From positions 1-29,904 of IMG/VR virus record IMGVR_UViG_3300017707_000587: a DNA stretch of 29,904 bases, one strand, 5' to 3'. A program made the position numbers and the translations under genes. This document shows positions 2,915 to 22,997 of this stretch, piece after piece; position 1 is the stretch's first letter, and each line of letters begins with the position of its first letter. Source of the stretch: a virus. Taxonomy: Duplodnaviria; Caudoviricetes. The notes under the pieces were generated by a model that searched no databases, was not told where the DNA came from, and was given only the letters and a program-made list of their open reading frames with translations.

Positions 2915-2931
2915 CAGAAAATCAATTAACC

Positions 2932-3270
2932 ATGACAGCAAACGAACTTAGAATTGGGAATTATTTTTATGATTCAGAATTTGAAATTTTTACCGTTGAA
3001 GAAATTTGTAAATACCAAACTCATGGCAGTATTGGTGTAAGATTTAGAAGCGGTGGATCGTGGGGCTCTATTGAAGTGATTGAGCCCATCCCCCTCACCG
3101 AAGAGTGGCTGGTGAAGTTGGGGCTTGAGAACAAGAACGAAATTATAACTGATTCGCTAGGTCGATATTATTTACTGAGATGCCAAGGCGTTCAGTTGAG
3201 ATATGTTCACCAACTCCAAAACCTTTATTTTGCTATTACAGGAGAAGAATTAACAATTAAAAATAAATAA
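2932..3270 (+). CDS. Bacteroidota-phage-type hypothetical protein (start revised to ATG 2932)
   Basis: MTANELRIGNY...EPIPLTEEWL...YVHQLQNLYFAITGEEL is a recurrent small phage protein pattern; the TTG start at 2884 coincides with the promoter. Confidence 0.75.
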   Translation: MTANELRIGNYFYDSEFEIFTVEEICKYQTHGSIGVRFRSGGSWGSIEVIEPIPLTEEWLVKLGLENKNEIITDSLGRYYLLRCQGVQLRYVHQLQNLYFAITGEELTIKNK

Positions 3271-3441: not shown

Positions 3442-3705
3442 ATGTACTACGAAGGAACTGTTACCATACCATGCGATCTGTCAATAGACGAAGATATAGA
3501 CGCATTTGAACTCGACTTTGAATGTAGCCTCGATTGCGACGAATCGACGCACGCATCAGACCCGTCGAACGGTGGCGAAGAGTTTACAATAACTTACCTG
3601 CCAGACGGAAGCGCCCCGTCGTGGGTTTCGGATGTTATCGTTGATCTGGCGAAAGAAAAAGCGAAAGACTACTTTCTGAATAACCTGAGTAAGTATCGGT
3701 GCTAA
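3442..3705 (+). CDS. Acidic hypothetical protein
   Basis: 87-aa ORF in operon context; its TAA stop is part of the TAAC that begins cassette site 1. Confidence 0.65.
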   Translation: MYYEGTVTIPCDLSIDEDIDAFELDFECSLDCDESTHASDPSNGGEEFTITYLPDGSAPSWVSDVIVDLAKEKAKDYFLNNLSKYRC

Positions 3706-3848
3706 CGTTTTGCAGCTAACAGAAGTGGCGGCTTTGCGTTCGTTACCGAATTAGAATTACATCACTTCAAAATATATTCAAATGCTCAATAAAGAAAAAA
3801 AAGTACAGCCAACTTCCAAAAGAGGTAATGAATCAAAACCGATTGTTA
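3703..3848. repeat. attC-like hairpin site 1 (TAAC...GTTA)
   Basis: Starts TAAC 3703, ends GTTA 3845-3848; arm GGCTTTGCGTTCGTTACC (~3730-3747) pairs imperfectly with GGTAATGAATCAAAACC (~3824-3840). Confidence 0.55.
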
Positions 3849-4012
3849 TAAGCCGTTTTATTGTTGGGAATAAAATTCCATTAAAGAACAACAGCTACTT
3901 GTACATAATGGCTTTAGTTGATAATTATTATATGGCTCGGTACAAAGGCTGCGTTCCGTTCGTCTGCCGATTGGATATGTTGAAGCAGATAGTTGATAAA
4001 AATGGCTTATAA
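3782..4012 (+). CDS. Cassette 1 hypothetical protein
   Basis: 76 aa; starts in the loop of site 1 and stops at the TAA of the terminal TAAC. Bracketed by GTTATAAGCCGTTTT (3845-3859) / AAAATGGCTTATAAC (3999-4013). Confidence 0.65.
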   Translation: MLNKEKKVQPTSKRGNESKPIVISRFIVGNKIPLKNNSYLYIMALVDNYYMARYKGCVPFVCRLDMLKQIVDKNGL

Positions 4013-4055
4013 CTAGCAGATATGTCCTACAAACACAGACCAATCCGCCCGAATC
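3999..4055 (+). repeat. Array-terminal repeat, copy A
   Basis: 49/57 identical, ungapped, to 5676-5732. Confidence 0.85.
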
Positions 4056-4074
4056 TAACAGATAAGACTTAATC

Positions 4075-4356
4075 ATGAGCCTGAAACGATACGCTGCTAA
4101 ACGCGACGAAAACGAAAAAGATATTATCGACGCACTTCAAAGAATGGGCGCGGAAGTTTACAGATTATCTTCGTCTGGTTTGCCTGATCTATTGGTCGGG
4201 TGGCGCGGAATCAATATCTTAGTTGAAGTGAAGACGGATAAAGGTAAGCACACTCCAGATCAGATAACATTTCAACAGACGTGGACGGGTCAGCAATGCA
4301 CGATCCGTACCGTTGACGAAGCGATAGAACTTTTACAAACAATCAAAACAAAATAA
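4075..4356 (+). CDS. VRR-NUC domain endonuclease (Holliday-junction-resolvase-like)
   Basis: KRDENE..I, GLPDLLVG, LVEVKT..G..T.DQ..F...W motifs. Confidence 0.85.
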   Translation: MSLKRYAAKRDENEKDIIDALQRMGAEVYRLSSSGLPDLLVGWRGINILVEVKTDKGKHTPDQITFQQTWTGQQCTIRTVDEAIELLQTIKTK

Positions 4357-4357
4357 C

Positions 4358-4711
4358 ATGAACATCATCGAATTATCCCTTACATCAGAGCACGGCAGCT
4401 TTGCGTGTGATACGAATCTAAGCGCAACTCACGATCCAACATTGGAACTTTATATTTTTGATGGATTAGAAGGTTTTTCAGGTAATGACATCAGATTTGA
4501 ATTTTCGTGTCAAGATCACCCGATTCAATCCAACTCACAACTGGCAATAACTTACGCCTGTTTCGTTCTGAACGACGTATACTACCACATCCGCCTCACA
4601 GGCACACCATCAATAAAGATCGGTGATAACGAATACGTGGTAACATACGAAGACTGCCGACTTCCTTTCGACGGCTCAACGGTGAAGATCGTTTGCAGAT
4701 GGAGTGAGTAA
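4358..4711 (+). CDS. Hypothetical protein
   Basis: 117-aa ORF starting 1 nt after the VRR-NUC stop, followed by a terminator. Confidence 0.65.
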   Translation: MNIIELSLTSEHGSFACDTNLSATHDPTLELYIFDGLEGFSGNDIRFEFSCQDHPIQSNSQLAITYACFVLNDVYYHIRLTGTPSIKIGDNEYVVTYEDCRLPFDGSTVKIVCRWSE

Positions 4712-4764
4712 ATCTTTTTTCAGTTCGTTCTTTATACCCTGTTTAAGTGACAGGTGTTTGCACT

Positions 4765-4790
4765 AAGCCCCTCTTAATTGGGGGGCTTTG
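4765..4790 (+). terminator. Rho-independent terminator-like hairpin
   Basis: AAGCCCCTC-TTAATT-GGGGGGCTT followed by TGGTTT. Confidence 0.6.
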
Positions 4791-4793
4791 GTT

Positions 4794-4921
4794 TAACGGT
4801 TTCGGGCTTGGCGTTCGGCAGGGCTTGATAGCACTACACTTGATTTGAAAAACAAAAATTTGAAAATATGAATACAGATAATTTGAAAAACGAAACCGCC
4901 AATGGCACAAAACCCGTGTTA
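4794..4921. repeat. attC-like hairpin site 2 (TAAC...GTTA)
   Basis: TAACGGTTTCGGGCTTGGCG ... CCGCCAATGGCACAAAACCCGTGTTA; same layout as site 3, with only partial arm complementarity (CGGG/CCCG). Confidence 0.6.
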
Positions 4922-5146
4922 GCAGCCGTTAATTTTGATGCTATCCACAATGCAATAAGCAATTTCGTTCTAACAAATAATCGAAGACCAACGATAATTG
5001 CAATGCACCCTGATGATGGCGAAAAGTTTATAGAATTGCTTTACAAAGAATACGGATATTTTGCGATGCAAAACCTTATGAATTACAGAGGTATGAGATT
5101 GCTTCGTTCTTTTGATGTCGAAGAAGGTCGTTGGTCGGTCTATTAA
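4868..5146 (+). CDS. Cassette 2 protein; pattern resembles a stand-alone HK97 capsid A-domain
   Basis: 92 aa; starts in the loop of site 2. Bracketed by GTTAGCAGCCGTTAAT (4918-4933) / ATTAATGGCTGCTAAC (5142-5157), 15/16 complementary. Confidence 0.65.
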   Translation: MNTDNLKNETANGTKPVLAAVNFDAIHNAISNFVLTNNRRPTIIAMHPDDGEKFIELLYKEYGYFAMQNLMNYRGMRLLRSFDVEEGRWSVY

Positions 5147-5153
5147 TGGCTGC

Positions 5154-5244
5154 TAACGGGTTGTGGCTTGGCGAAGTACCGCCTTTCACAAATGTTGAAT
5201 TATAGTACAAAGGCTTGTGGCGGTATTTTGCCAAACCACTGTTA
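5154..5244. repeat. attC-like hairpin site 3 (best preserved)
   Basis: TAAC-GGGTT-GTGGCTTGGCGAAGTACCGCC (5154-5183) pairs with GGCGGTATTTTGCCAAACCAC-T-GTTA (5219-5244): a 21-position stem with one mismatch and two G.T pairs, and an unpaired spacer next to the TAAC/GTTA core. Confidence 0.8.
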
Positions 5245-5290
5245 TAAGCCGTTTTTTATTGGTTTGGATTAACAATTTAATTAAAAAACA

Positions 5291-5677
5291 ATGGTAAATA
5301 TTAAAGGATTTCCACTTTTGCACGAAGAAGAATGCAAAGAAATGTTCAGTGCTGATATGTCTTTTTCAGGCTATTATTTTATAAAACCAATTTATAAATG
5401 GCTACCTGATTTTAGTGATTTAGATGATGAAGAAAAGGCAAAATACATCTTCAAAAACTTAAAAGAAGGTATGTATTTAGTTGGATTAGAAATAATATCT
5501 GAAAAATGGGTAAACAAAGGATTTTGCGGAATGCTTTTAGAAACTTATGGACTTGTTTTAGATGAAGCAAATCCGATGGTAAAGAAAGGCGATAGAGGTG
5601 ATGAAGAAAGTCTTATTTATTTGTCATTTGACCACGTTGCTTTTGCTGTTCATTCTGTTACGGTGTCGGTGTTCTAA
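5291..5677 (+). CDS. Cassette 3 hypothetical protein (AT-rich)
   Basis: 128 aa; bracketed by GTTATAAGCCGTTTT (5241-5255) / AAAATGGCTTATAAC (5676-5690). Confidence 0.7.
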   Translation: MVNIKGFPLLHEEECKEMFSADMSFSGYYFIKPIYKWLPDFSDLDDEEKAKYIFKNLKEGMYLVGLEIISEKWVNKGFCGMLLETYGLVLDEANPMVKKGDRGDEESLIYLSFDHVAFAVHSVTVSVF

Positions 5678-5732
5678 AATGGCTTATAACTATCCGATAT
5701 GCCCTACAAATACAGGCTTATCTGCCCGAATC
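5676..5732 (+). repeat. Array-terminal repeat, copy B
   Basis: 49/57 identical to 3999-4055; contains hairpin GATA-T-GCC...GGC-T-TATC. Confidence 0.85.
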
Positions 5733-5764
5733 GGATTGATAGGTATTGAAACAGCATCTAATGG

Positions 5765-5787
5765 AAGCCCCGTAATTGGGGCTTTAT
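5765..5787. terminator. Terminator-like hairpin between convergent early and late operons
   Basis: AAGCCCC-GTAATT-GGGGCTT followed by TATTT; lies at the convergence point. Confidence 0.65.
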
Positions 5788-6279
5788 TTATTTGCTCATC
5801 ATCTTATCCAACTGATCCTGCTTATTACGGCTGCCAATTGATGAACCGAAGTAATAACCAACAACTCCCATTGCAATAGTTGTAAGTGACCCAACAATAC
5901 CTGCAACTAACATCTCCTTTTCCTGTGGAATATCTTTGAACAGAATTGTGTACCACATCACGAAGCACGACCCCAACAGCAACAGCGCCAAGACTGGCTG
6001 AATGATCTTATTAATCAATGGTGCTTTATCGGAAGTTGCAATTTGAATCTCACGGTCACGCGCTGAATCCATGTCTTTCATCAGCGTTTCTAATTCAGAA
6101 TTCTGAGCCGATGCCATAGCCTCAATATGACGGTTTACTTCTTTGGTCACTTCCGCTTTGAACTCTTCTTTCTCCTGACCCGTCGTGATGAACTTATCGG
6201 CTACGTTGCCGACTGATTCCACGATGTTAGCCGCGCCCTGTGACGTGACCTTTCCGATAATGTTTGCGAAAAAACTCAT
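5788..6279 (-). CDS. Holin (3TM / GTA-holin-like)
   Basis: DKFITT..EK, D.DSARDRE and GYYFGSS motifs plus two C-terminal hydrophobic helices; last gene of the late operon. Confidence 0.75.
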   Translation of the reverse strand: MSFFANIIGKVTSQGAANIVESVGNVADKFITTGQEKEEFKAEVTKEVNRHIEAMASAQNSELETLMKDMDSARDREIQIATSDKAPLINKIIQPVLALLLLGSCFVMWYTILFKDIPQEKEMLVAGIVGSLTTIAMGVVGYYFGSSIGSRNKQDQLDKMMSK

Positions 6280-6704
6280 GCTTTTGTTATTTCAATTTCA
6301 AACTCCGTTCCTTCAGGCATGATCTGTATCAACTGCAACTCCATAACGGTTGACTGTATTACAGATTCAATACTACGTTTGCGCCCTACTAAAATGCAGC
6401 CTAATGAATCCTTGTTAGTATTGCCCTTATGGATCAATATACCGTCAAATGCAGGAACATTCAATAGACGTGGCAACAATCTCTTTTTAGACGGAGACAC
6501 GTTGACAATGCCTTTGTACTTACCATAAGGAATACAAGTCTGCCCCTTAACTTTCAGCCGCTTGTTTTCTTCCAATGGCAACGACTGATTCAATCCGCGA
6601 TCTTTGTCCTCCAATGTTTCGCAGAAGTATTTACCGTCTATGTACATCTTACCTAGTGTACAATTCTCCGTGAACGTATCGCGGACTACTTTGATCTGTA
6701 TCAT
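6276..6704 (-). CDS. DUF5675-family protein; candidate endolysin with an L,D-transpeptidase-like His/Cys motif
   Basis: TLGKMYIDGKYFCETLED, TCIPYGKY, VPAFDGILIHKGNTNKDSLGCILVG; flanked by membrane-protein genes. Confidence 0.75.
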   Translation of the reverse strand: MIQIKVVRDTFTENCTLGKMYIDGKYFCETLEDKDRGLNQSLPLEENKRLKVKGQTCIPYGKYKGIVNVSPSKKRLLPRLLNVPAFDGILIHKGNTNKDSLGCILVGRKRSIESVIQSTVMELQLIQIMPEGTEFEIEITKA

Positions 6705-7688: not shown

Positions 7689-9281
7689 TTAAAATCCGTC
7701 TGCGATTATTTGTGTTGCTGCTAACTGAGCGTTGTTTTCAGTTCCTGATTTATCATAGTGAACTTCATCAACGTCAGTAGTAGAAGTGTCCGTATTAATG
7801 GTTCTGTAATATGTTGTATTTGTCAATCTAACTGCATCCTTTGCTGAGTTAATAGTTGACTTATACAGAAGAGTAGCCAAAGTCTGATTTGCTGATAATC
7901 TGAAATCGTAAAGATACGGGAACGTAAAGAACACTTGCTGAATCTTTGTGTCAAATACAGAATTAGCCTGACCTGTTAGCCAGTTAGTCCACGATGTTTG
8001 ATAAGCGTTAGCGTATGCCAGCGTCAATGAATCGGCTTCGCCCTGAATCCAAATGAATCGCATCTTATTGATCGTGTAACCGCCTGCAAGTTCCCACTCT
8101 TTCAATGCTGTTAAGTCATTGCTCAACTGTGTAAACTCGCCTCCTATTGGGTTGCGTGACCATGTAGGAGGATCGTTGGCTAAGTACGAACCGCCTTGTA
8201 CTTGCTTAAACACGTAAATTGTTTTTCTGAATTCACGATTAAGAAGATCTCCTAACTTAAACTCAATACCAAACTCATTACCACTTTGCGTGTCTGAGTA
8301 TTGGTTATTATTTATCGTCGAATTAATGTTTTCGAATCCTGTTCCGTTCCACACTTTCAGCCATTGCTTTTCACCTACATACTGCGAATCTAGTTCAGCC
8401 ATAGGAACGCGACCAGAAGCATTTGATTGACCGTGAATCATTACCACGGAAACCATTTTTAACGCTGGTGCGTCTGCGATCTGATCAGCTTGTACCATTC
8501 CAGAAGATGTGAATACAGCGCCTCCCACTAAGTCAGTCCATGTCCAGTTAGTTGAGAATGTAGCCGATCTGTCCGCAACCAAATACATAACCAATGATGA
8601 GTTCAGCGTTGTATTAGTTCGAATGTCAAACGGCACACGATTGTTATACAATTCCGTTACGTTAGCCTGTGATAAGTTTGTGTTGAATAACGCAAAGCTA
8701 CATACTGCTACATTAGCATAACTCGCAGCATCAGAACGACCAAGTATATTCATAACAGGAATAGAACCGCTAGAGTTAATAGCCGCTCCCATTGTTCCCG
8801 TCTGCGTTGTTGTTCCTGCAAATGGCAATCCGTTACGATAAACAGTTATGCGACTTGTTGCGGATAACGCTCCGTCATATACTACTGTAAAGTGATTCCA
8901 TTCACGCGTTTCTGTGATCGTTGCAGTAGATGAAAAAGATATTAAGTTCGTTGAACTTGAGTAAAAGTTAGCCTGAAAGTTATTTGTGTTATTGAAGAAC
9001 AATACGAATTGCCTCTGTGTTGTTGCAGAAGATTTATCGCGGCAAACAATAAACTGAGTAACGCCAGTAACCGTTCTTTTAACCCATACCGACATCGTGA
9101 ACTTATCGTTGCTTGCCGTGATCGCGTTATTGATTATTGTCGTAGATGTTGCGTCGCCACTAAATATGTTATTTGACGCGTCACCTTGAAATGATTTCAG
9201 CGCCCACGTGTTCGTAGTGTAGTCTAATACTACGTTACCTTCAGTAGGAAATCTTGTTAAAAAACTATTTACCCCGATCAT
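7689..9281 (-). CDS. Putative receptor-binding protein: LamG/ConA-like lectin plus SGNH carbohydrate esterase (SASA/CE6-like)
   Basis: LamG: FTMSVWVK, EWNHFTVVYDG, ITVYRNG, LSQANVTELYN. Esterase: HGQSNASG, QGGS, WIQGEAD, DEVH (DxxH). Confidence 0.8.
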   Translation of the reverse strand: MIGVNSFLTRFPTEGNVVLDYTTNTWALKSFQGDASNNIFSGDATSTTIINNAITASNDKFTMSVWVKRTVTGVTQFIVCRDKSSATTQRQFVLFFNNTNNFQANFYSSSTNLISFSSTATITETREWNHFTVVYDGALSATSRITVYRNGLPFAGTTTQTGTMGAAINSSGSIPVMNILGRSDAASYANVAVCSFALFNTNLSQANVTELYNNRVPFDIRTNTTLNSSLVMYLVADRSATFSTNWTWTDLVGGAVFTSSGMVQADQIADAPALKMVSVVMIHGQSNASGRVPMAELDSQYVGEKQWLKVWNGTGFENINSTINNNQYSDTQSGNEFGIEFKLGDLLNREFRKTIYVFKQVQGGSYLANDPPTWSRNPIGGEFTQLSNDLTALKEWELAGGYTINKMRFIWIQGEADSLTLAYANAYQTSWTNWLTGQANSVFDTKIQQVFFTFPYLYDFRLSANQTLATLLYKSTINSAKDAVRLTNTTYYRTINTDTSTTDVDEVHYDKSGTENNAQLAATQIIADGF

Positions 9282-20734: not shown

Positions 20735-21676
20735 TTACAACTCCGAGTAATATTTTTTTAATTGGTTGCCGATCGGATTAATATCATGCTTTCTTAGCAT
20801 CCAATCGTAATGATCCAATTTAATCCGCTTTATTTGCTCCTGACTAAGTGAAATAAGGTAGTCGATAGTGCCTGTAAATTCTGATTCCGTATGCGCTAGG
20901 AATAGTGGAGAATATCCGTAAACCTTCTCATAAGCATCTCGGTAAATGTTCTGAGTTAACACTATTTTACCCATAGCCGCCGCCTCAAATGCCGTAACCC
21001 CGTGACAACCGTATGGCTTCCCGTTCAACTCAGCCTTAAATAACTCAATGTAAACGTCACATTTAAACATTCTGATTAGGTTCTGATCGTGTCCAGTAAG
21101 CCCGTCGGAGTATTCAAAATGCAATTTATCCCCGTATGCCGCCATCATTCGGCGTATATCTGGCGACCCTTTTACTTCAGGCTTACTAGGGAAGTGCGAA
21201 AACCATAGCTTAGACGCCATTAGAGGCTCATATCCTGAAGGATTTACCGTTTCCAACACTTCATTCACGTCGATGGCTGCTGACGCGTAGGTTAGCGTGG
21301 AATCGTGAATCAGGAACTCGCACTGATCGGTAAAATGTCGCTTTACTCCGATCTGTTCAAAATTATTCCTTACCTTTTCAGGTTCTGCCCGATATTCGCT
21401 ACCCGTGTGCCATACGTTAATGACTTTGCCGCGTAGTGACGCAGCCTCTATCAGGTTTGCAATCGGTTTTGCTGAGTGATACACGTTGATAATGTCAGCC
21501 CAACGCATCAGCCTCATGATCTCGGAAGGTGCTAAAACAGGCGCTTGCGTTCGATAACCAAACTGATGTGGCTTCAATTTCGCCTCCATCACGTCAACAC
21601 CGACTGACTTTAATGCCTTAGTGTGTCCGTGCATTAGGTTGGCATAGTCGTCGTAGCTTACGTTAAGTATTTTCAT
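20735..21676 (-). CDS. GT-B fold glycosyltransferase (GT4-like)
   Basis: MKILNV, WADIINVYH, HFPS...KG, CDVYIE, HGVTAFEAAAMGKIVL donor-binding motif. Confidence 0.75.
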   Translation of the reverse strand: MKILNVSYDDYANLMHGHTKALKSVGVDVMEAKLKPHQFGYRTQAPVLAPSEIMRLMRWADIINVYHSAKPIANLIEAASLRGKVINVWHTGSEYRAEPEKVRNNFEQIGVKRHFTDQCEFLIHDSTLTYASAAIDVNEVLETVNPSGYEPLMASKLWFSHFPSKPEVKGSPDIRRMMAAYGDKLHFEYSDGLTGHDQNLIRMFKCDVYIELFKAELNGKPYGCHGVTAFEAAAMGKIVLTQNIYRDAYEKVYGYSPLFLAHTESEFTGTIDYLISLSQEQIKRIKLDHYDWMLRKHDINPIGNQLKKYYSEL

Positions 21677-22254
21677 TCAGGCGTGTATTGAATCAACAAA
21701 ACTTTCTCGGTCAGGTAATTTGAATATGACACCTTCCATCCTTTCATTAACTCATGCAAAAGCGGCTCGGTGATCTTGAATGTGTGATACTGATCAGGCT
21801 CAATGTCAATTCCAGTAAGAAAGATAATCGACTTCTTAGCGATACCCTTCATATTGTTGCAAGCCTTAACCAGATCGTGCATAGAATCCAATGCAGCAAA
21901 GCAAACAATAGTATCAAATTCGCCGTACTGAATCGCAAACATATTCGGATGCGCGTCTTCGATCTTTAACCCAGTAACCTGATCGTTAACAGGAAACGCG
22001 TCAACACCCATGTACTTAACATTCGGGTAGTGCTGTTCAAGGATTCTGCCAATACTCATATCACCACATCCGACATCAAGTACCGAATTTCCGATACCAG
22101 CCCCGTGCTGAATGATTCCGCGTAGGTGTCTGTGATAATCCGCAACAATGTTTTCGCACTTTGCATTATCACTTACTCCTGTTGATCTCCGCTTGATGAG
22201 ATTACCCGTTGCGGATTCCCATTTAGTCTTAGTGGTTTTAGTTTCCTGTGTCAT
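21673..22254 (-). CDS. Class I SAM-dependent methyltransferase
   Basis: SVLDVGCG (motif I), YMGVD, FDTIVCFAALD. Confidence 0.85.
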   Translation of the reverse strand: MTQETKTTKTKWESATGNLIKRRSTGVSDNAKCENIVADYHRHLRGIIQHGAGIGNSVLDVGCGDMSIGRILEQHYPNVKYMGVDAFPVNDQVTGLKIEDAHPNMFAIQYGEFDTIVCFAALDSMHDLVKACNNMKGIAKKSIIFLTGIDIEPDQYHTFKITEPLLHELMKGWKVSYSNYLTEKVLLIQYTPE

Positions 22255-22997
22255 TTTCCAAATTCATTATCGGTTAATAGATTTCTTTTAGGTCGCTTCA
22301 CTATCTGCTCGTAAATGCGGTATTTGTACTGAACACCCAACCGCTTTAACGTGCCAGATGGTAAATTCTTATTGTAAATGTAAATAGGTTCTCTGATTAT
22401 TCCAATACGATCCTTTCCGCACATCTCCAAACAGCTAAACATTACCTCGCTTTCCGTTGTCGAATCAATCCATTTTCCAAATAGTTTGAAATCGCATGAA
22501 GGAATCCGATCGAATAGAAACTTGTAAAAAGTATTCGGTGCTGTCGATCTGTATTTAACCTGACGATAATCGCGCGTGTTGTGGACGTATGCGTCAAAGT
22601 CAAGATCGAAATTCTCAGGTAGCCCTTCACCGTTCTGGTCTATCCAGTTTCCGTATGTCATCCACTTACCTGATACATATTGCTCCGCGATCTTCTCCAG
22701 TGCGTTCGGCAGTAGCCTGTCATCCATTCCGACCAATACCACTACGTCAGTTTTGTCGCCGAAGTTCTGCAACACTTCCAATCTTCGTTTTGCCGCACCT
22801 TCGTTTTTCTTATGGTAAATCTTGAAAAATCGTGGATCGGTTACAGTTTTCTCAATGGTGTATTCGGTTGTATCGGTTGACCCGTCAGAAACGAACACGC
22901 ACGCGAAGTTACGATACGTCTGCGCTACTATTGATTCATAGCAAGCCCTAACGTACTTTGTACAATTGTACCCCGTTACGACTACAATAAATCGCAT
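22251..22997 (-). CDS. GT-A glycosyltransferase family 2
   Basis: VVVTGYN...V..C.ESI.AQTY.NF...FVSDGSTD, KNEGAA; the usual DxD reads GMDD. Confidence 0.85.
   Translation of the reverse strand: MRFIVVVTGYNCTKYVRACYESIVAQTYRNFACVFVSDGSTDTTEYTIEKTVTDPRFFKIYHKKNEGAAKRRLEVLQNFGDKTDVVVLVGMDDRLLPNALEKIAEQYVSGKWMTYGNWIDQNGEGLPENFDLDFDAYVHNTRDYRQVKYRSTAPNTFYKFLFDRIPSCDFKLFGKWIDSTTESEVMFSCLEMCGKDRIGIIREPIYIYNKNLPSGTLKRLGVQYKYRIYEQIVKRPKRNLLTDNEFGK

Follow-up and report, generated by a model that had tools for sequence, protein, structure and literature searches.

Two cassette arrays of a phage end in a predicted attI-type site, a homologue of a four-box site beside Bacteroidota recombinase genes

Both cassette rows of the phage genome studied here terminate at a 57-base repeat that, judged by its sequence, is a predicted attI-type site and neither the end of an element nor a terminator. 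The repeat is homologous to a four-box site of Bacteroidota, and we consider it probable that it serves the phage as a docking site for cassettes, with a host recombinase acting in trans. Such a system would work like an integron and its attI site but would not be a classical integron, since the candidate enzyme appears to lack the IntI insertion and the cassette genes run against integron polarity.

Results

The repeat and the arrays that it ends

The window, as we call the whole stretch of DNA analysed, is a 29,904-nt whole phage record with an estimated completeness of 87%, in which portal, protease, capsid and tail genes are present. A plus-strand block with three small cassettes sits between its replication and lysis genes, one cassette forming array 1 and two forming array 2. 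Every cassette body follows a TAAC...GTTA spacer, and its GTTA...TAAC ends are self-complementary. In cassette 1, the attC-like spacer (3703–3848, minus strand) has arms that do not pair (fold z = +1.2/+0.8) and is likely hybrid or decayed; the body (3845–4013) has ends corresponding to inverted repeat I10, and the 76-aa ORF (3782–4012, plus strand) starts inside the spacer and stops at the TAA of the R box described below. The attC-like hairpin of cassette 2 (4794–4921, minus strand) has a long loop (z = −1.4), in which the 92-aa ORF starts (4868–5146, plus strand). Cassette 3 has a well-folded attC-like hairpin (5154–5244, minus strand, z = −4.0/−3.8) and an ORF of 128 aa (5291–5677, plus strand). 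The bodies of cassettes 2 and 3 lie at 4918–5157 and 5241–5690 and likewise have self-complementary ends. A Pfam/PHROG search with the cassette 1 ORF gave no match, and the ORFs of cassettes 2 and 3 had no family match.

Several further features of the region were observed. The left and right arms of the spacer at 3703–3848 (z about +1) look as if they were derived from different hairpin types. The ORFs starting at 3782 and 4868 begin within a hairpin loop, and their frame runs through GTTA. Array 2 is flanked by two similar terminator-like hairpins (4766–4790 and 5764–5785). A 341-nt gene at 2926–3268, an indel gene without cassette ends, is skipped in contigs of three runs with a junction ambiguous by 8 letters. 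The virion genes of the window (21673–22997 and 7689–9281) include methyltransferase, glycosyltransferase and SASA esterase domains.

The initial annotation had described 3999–4055 and 5676–5732 as a structured terminal site of about 57 bp shared by both arrays. These stretches are indeed identical at 49 of 57 positions in an ungapped alignment and at 34 of the 42 positions after TAAC, and the aligned GATA is found at 4061 and 5738. The next best match to the 42 nt elsewhere in the window reached only 23–25 positions, and a 29-nt pattern common to both copies occurred twice in the window and in none of 100 shuffles. The repeat is therefore real, but its extent had to be corrected: the first 11 nt are cassette end, and they are common to both copies because the proximal cassettes (starting at 3845 and 5241) have the same end type. 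The site proper occupies 4010–4066 (site A) and 5687–5743 (site B), and its top strand is the minus strand.

In site A, the R core (4010–4013), with the predicted crossover G|TTA between 4013 and 4012, is followed by a 5-nt spacer, the L box (4019–4024), a 15-nt eroded palindrome (4025–4039), box 3 in the DR1 position (4040–4045) and box 4, inverted, in the DR2 position (4061–4066). The same elements of site B are found at 5687–5690 (R core, predicted crossover 5690|5689), 5696–5701 (L), 5702–5716 (palindrome), 5717–5722 (box 3) and 5738–5743 (box 4). To the right of site A lies a VRR-NUC-like endonuclease gene (4075–4356, plus strand). To the right of site B are a terminator-like hairpin that is separate from the repeat (5764–5785, plus strand) and a holin-like gene (5788–6279, minus strand), by which the constant flank of site B is recognized in related phages.

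Both pairings proposed for the repeat were found in both copies, and the compensatory change noted between them (GTC/GAC versus GCC/GGC) proved to be one pair of an inverted repeat running from L to box 3. In thermodynamic terms the word 'structured' is weakly borne out: folding as ssDNA gave z = −0.7, −2.4, −0.9 and −1.3, against about −4 for the hairpin at 5154–5244 used for comparison.

A four-box site downstream of Bacteroidota recombinase genes

A scan with the left arm of the hairpins yielded 123 loci in viral and 123 in bacterial records, and long flanks were available for 80 of each kind. The bacterial records were mostly Bacteroidota, and some of their arrays directly followed a tyrosine recombinase gene of the same orientation. 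From searches of 91, 81 and 81 genomes we obtained 36 recombinase loci; the IS91-linked recombinases (L380, L419) were treated apart, as a clade of their own. A host-type site was found at 21 of the 36 loci and, under our selection rule, none at the other 15. It lies 90–118 nt past the recombinase stop codon at 20 of the 21 loci and 27 nt past it at one, and it has the layout YAAC, 5 nt, L box, 15 nt, box 3 and 5 nt ending in CC. A cassette inverted repeat (at least 11/14) occurs downstream of 9 of the 21 sites; several of the other contigs end too soon. In bacterial arrays the host homologue of the repeat is thus flanked by the recombinase gene on one side and the first cassette on the other, and this location supports the attI-like reading of the initial annotation. 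All 17 site-bearing proteins long enough for a tree fell on one side of a 100/98 branch. In host sites the arms of the L-to-box-3 palindrome were paired in 77 of 105 cells, versus at most 36 of 105 when slid. This inverted repeat, with 5-nt arms, shows many double changes, and across 29 host and phage rows its covariation of 0.363 was reached in 0 of 500 shuffles.

Against TIGR02249, for which the IntI cut-off is 265, two host enzymes scored 209 and 194 bits, each in two stretches, and when one host enzyme was compared with IntI1, 20 of its residues spanned about 57 IntI1 codons. The split scores below the cut-off and this shortened stretch indicate that the IntI insertion is missing in the host enzyme. 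The IntI-specific insertion in the catalytic domain has been described as essential for integron function (PMC8138268).

Two plasmid cases were also seen. A Chryseobacterium oryzae plasmid (L598, 5780–6760) carries a recombinase, a four-box-type site and a single VOC-family cassette, and many Acinetobacter plasmids carry recombinases 49% identical to the host enzyme (matches H12–H28), one of them annotated as TnpF.

Match between the host site and the phage repeat

A profile trained only on sites beside Bacteroidota chromosomal tyrosine-recombinase genes ranked 4010 and 5687 first and second among the 684 YAAC positions and the 59,726 positions of the window, and none of 11,988 background YAAC positions reached the score of either copy. 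The L box had helped to select the host sites, which makes its share in the selection rule partly circular; box 3 and the tail, which had no role in picking, were therefore scored alone, and the scores of the two copies were reached by 6 and 0 of the 11,988 positions. The first training set contained two mispicked sites and the second one (L510), and the ranks were unchanged. A chromosomal array end outside the training set (L382) matched in register. When a TAAC-free profile was run over 6.0 million positions of the collected loci, which are array-enriched and in which matches below a score of 17.5 were chance-like, YAAC stood in register at 14 of the 15 best new matches (training sites removed), versus 0.8% of the background, and 10 of these 14 had a cassette repeat of at least 11/14. 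The new matches are thus tied to cassette ends; the initial annotation had named matches independent of such ends as an outcome that would refute its reading, and this outcome was not seen.

When 58 other array ends of phages were scored, 15 of which are probably unresolved inner hairpins, box 3 gave a score in just 2, and the site of the window is therefore assigned to the host type. Most phage array ends are shorter than the site of the window. A viral locus, L302, carries three near-identical host-type sites (minus strand, 3545, 4443 and 5906), and every one of them comes after a cassette end.

Exact-pattern scans for the 42-mer gave no matches, since the site family is too divergent for exact patterns, and blastn against cultured phages gave none. 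A register-fixed pattern built from sites A and B and L382 had one viral match, nine metagenome stretches (two of them the window's own contig) and matches in 2 of 401 genomes of the phylum, one being that of L382; none of the other metagenome stretches abuts a cassette end or TAAC in register. Two looser patterns brought up 238 loci, which we rejected since all of them, the best at 29/46, were at chance level; we likewise rejected 19 matches of an off-register pattern with one N too many, which were chance matches in coding frames, none with a cassette repeat of at least 11/14.

The site is kept in related phages while cassettes change

A holin search in which the site was not used as a query led to eight loci from seven records. 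Seven sites orthologous to site B were present in six of the seven records, always on the same side of the holin; the seventh record (L565) ends at the holin. Every one of these sites follows a cassette-type end, with a clean junction. The adjoining cassettes are unrelated to those of the window, four of the seven encoding DNA methyltransferases and three being without a Pfam match, and the flank on the holin side stays constant while the cassettes differ. The phage lineage has one site beside the holin; the window and L563, which share the same layout, have a second copy upstream of the VRR-NUC gene. Copies A and B are closer to each other (34/42) than to their positional orthologues in L563 (22 and 28). 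A VRR-NUC search (33 loci) brought up distant relatives only, the one inspected (L529) being without the site, and a tblastn search with the holin gave one distant match.

The box cores and their exact spacing are kept across the nine sites of the lineage, and the sequence between the boxes diverges. The inner palindrome is eroded, its arms being paired in 18 of 45 cells, no better than when slid. The second pairing proposed in the initial annotation covaries in the lineage, with 80% of cells paired, 10 double changes, 0 of 500 shuffles reaching this value and slides reaching at most 42%, a result that stands on nine related sequences and a shuffle that ignores their relatedness. In the seven relatives alone, two of only three top column pairs (of 1,485) were stacked in the register of this pairing. 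It is absent from host sites (25/84).

No empty site was found in the relatives or in related contigs of the assembled runs. Related contigs that diverge at 4797 lead into a cassette-end remnant and another arm and not into a site; one contig, in which the stretch from 4797 to 6056 is reduced to 318 letters, was rejected as an empty site, as it runs into such a remnant. The left borders of the arrays are ragged in the relatives, and deletion or homologous recombination may therefore also alter the array content. In L568 (about 6290–6320), some 30 nt resembling the 3' end of the holin gene follow the site, and two extra ORFs precede the holin.

Source of the enzyme and polarity of the genes

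PF00589 was absent from the window (87% complete) and from the seven relatives, which include one with terminal repeats and one 98% complete. In the complete relative, 55 of the 66 listed ORFs were scanned; RecT and YqaJ families were found, and none of the 55 was a site-specific recombinase. An enzyme acting on the site would therefore act in trans, unless its gene lies in the roughly 13% of the genome that the window lacks. Three other phage loci (L276, L281 and L271) encode their own tyrosine recombinase of about 280 aa (277–294 aa), the genes starting 55–70 nt past short array-end sites and reading away from the array, and the enzyme could therefore also come from another phage.

Read on the minus strand, the order is site, G|TTA, cassette, hairpin, which the initial annotation had likened to an integron. 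The strands of the genes in bacterial arrays back this polarity: by hand count, 55 cassette genes (one a duplicate) lie on the minus strand of the hairpin pattern and 18 on its plus strand, two loci accounting for 15 of the latter. It follows that the cassette genes of the phages run against integron polarity: all three ORFs of the window read toward the site, and so do 158 of 177 viral cassettes, on the plus strand (6 opposite, 13 uncalled).

Discussion

Proposed mechanism

With the mechanism of integrons (PMC8946536) as an analogy, recombinase monomers would bind R, L, box 3 and box 4 as dsDNA, and the recombinase on R and L, aided by boxes 3 and 4, would join a folded cassette hairpin at G|TTA, so that the newest cassette would end up adjoining the site. 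The covarying inverted repeats would then reflect the symmetry of binding sites and not a fold that is needed. The host-type boxes point to a host enzyme; we suppose that this enzyme is the one at work, rather than a recombinase brought in by a co-infecting phage, and that the site remains active. The gene faces the site, as does its start, often in the hairpin loop (3782, 4868), and cassettes would therefore presumably be expressed from phage transcription and not from a Pc-like promoter behind the site.

A wider form of this reading is put forward tentatively, and we hold it to be somewhat less than evenly probable. A lineage of Bacteroidota siphophages would, as a kind of satellite integron, keep one or two working copies of the four-box host attI but no recombinase, and borrow the insertion-less host recombinase during infection to load cassettes of phage polarity, often DNA methyltransferases. 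The same pair of enzyme and site may lie behind homology-independent gene uptake in Bacteroidota.

Other explanations of the repeat

An unlikely explanation, although the most probable of the rivals, is that an attI site was captured once together with cassettes and is now inactive, the turnover of cassettes being due to homologous recombination of the RecT/YqaJ type with the hairpins and the site as patches of homology. The lack of a recombinase gene in the window and the relatives, the RecT and YqaJ families of the complete relative, the hybrid look of the spacer at 3703–3848, the ragged left borders, the eroded inner palindrome and the closeness of the two copies to each other, as compared with L563, would all fit such a relic. 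Against it stand the box cores and exact spacing, which were kept across nine sites while the sequence between the boxes diverged, new double changes in the second inverted repeat and a clean junction with a cassette end at every site.

It is improbable that the site acts as a folded single strand, attC-like or mixed between attI and attC, with positions 1–55 as one large inverted repeat in which the GATA of box 4 replaces GTTA. The covariation of the second pairing in the lineage and its stacked column pairs are what this explanation predicts, but inverted binding boxes in dsDNA yield the same signal, and the small set of related sequences limits its weight. Host sites moreover do not show the pairing, which cannot form together with the first helix, and the z-scores of folding are weak.

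Slightly less probable still is the alternative of the initial annotation, in which the site and cassettes are the end of a non-autonomous mobile unit present twice. The second copy must stem from some duplication or transfer, and two copies are found in the window and in L563 and three of host type in L302. However, no matching left end or target duplication was found among the repeats listed, the holin-side flank is constant while the cassettes differ, and the host homologue sits inside a platform of recombinase and array. A duplicated promoter, terminator or structured RNA is very improbable: terminator-like calls do occur inside both copies on the minus strand, but they are weak (5 pairs), a stronger terminator lies outside the repeat (5764–5785), Rfam gave no match near the gathering score, both copies are free of a sigma-70-type promoter and of TAnnTTTG (which we take to be the Bacteroidetes promoter consensus), and the matches are tied to YAAC and cassette ends.

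Comparison with known systems

The predicted attI-type site resembles attI1, whose four binding regions are R, L, DR1 and DR2 (PMC12901181; for DR1 and DR2, PMC3146285). In a column alignment with attI1 the R box and the inverted L box of our sites are 5 nt apart, and in attI1 as read from a plasmid record, DR1 and DR2, which lie 32 and 51 nt from the crossover, fall in the columns of boxes 3 and 4. Both kinds of site stand at the head of a cassette row. Box 3 has the position and direction of DR1, while box 4 has the position of DR2 but is inverted. Unlike attI1, host sites join L and box 3 by a covarying 15-nt palindrome, and the host enzyme, without the IntI insertion, is encoded co-oriented upstream of the array. 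The phage has no adjacent intI and its genes read toward the site; most host arrays do have cassette genes reading away from the site, as in a classical integron. The hairpin of the window folds, and by eye it shows a 5-versus-1 spacer, where a classical attC has a canonical 5/6-nt central spacer and extrahelical bases. With its three attC-like spacers and no integrase the window is also like a CALIN, with the difference that it keeps attI-type sites. IMEX elements such as the CTX phage have no integrase of their own and rely on a host tyrosine recombinase. The CTX phage genome itself integrates, at dif, whereas in the present case the phage would instead receive cassettes.

CALINs with methyltransferase cassettes and no integrase have been reported in phages, including Polaribacter phage P12002L, whose P12002L_attC2 recombined with attI1 via IntI1 while its hairpin attC1 did not (Qi et al. 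2023, PMC9892861). P12002L is a phage of Bacteroidota with TAAC...GTTA hairpins of the same look, and P12002L_attC2 (L599, 29237) is the sequence right after its last methyltransferase cassette, that is, an array-end site and the positional analogue of the site of the window. We found no four-box site in P12002L, and attC2 does not score with the four-box profile. Qi et al. named the array end attC, and the accessible parts of their text describe no attI, cognate recombinase or reversed gene polarity. For the Bacteroidota bacterium Riemerella anatipestifer, integration of a gene that bears an attC-like stem-loop at its 3' end has been reported to occur without homologous flanks, by a mechanism stated there to be unresolved (PMC13148043); in contrast to the present system, no attI or recombinase is named in the accessible parts of that report. 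The accessible parts of PMC8876359 and PMC8618304 added nothing specific on the site, and a literature search, with subscription journals largely outside its coverage, found no description of the four-box site or of the system.

Significance

IntegronFinder 2.0 reports few complete integrons in Bacteroidota (PMC9024848). The boxes set out here would supply a named acceptor site and a candidate enzyme for a cassette system widespread among Bacteroidota and their phages, and this site-enzyme pair makes the proposed reading directly testable by a standard assay. Integron specialists would be surprised by an enzyme that lacks the insertion and yet handles hairpin-bounded cassettes. If the reading is true, a phage that swaps methyltransferases with an enzyme supplied in trans would represent a new route of counter-defence.
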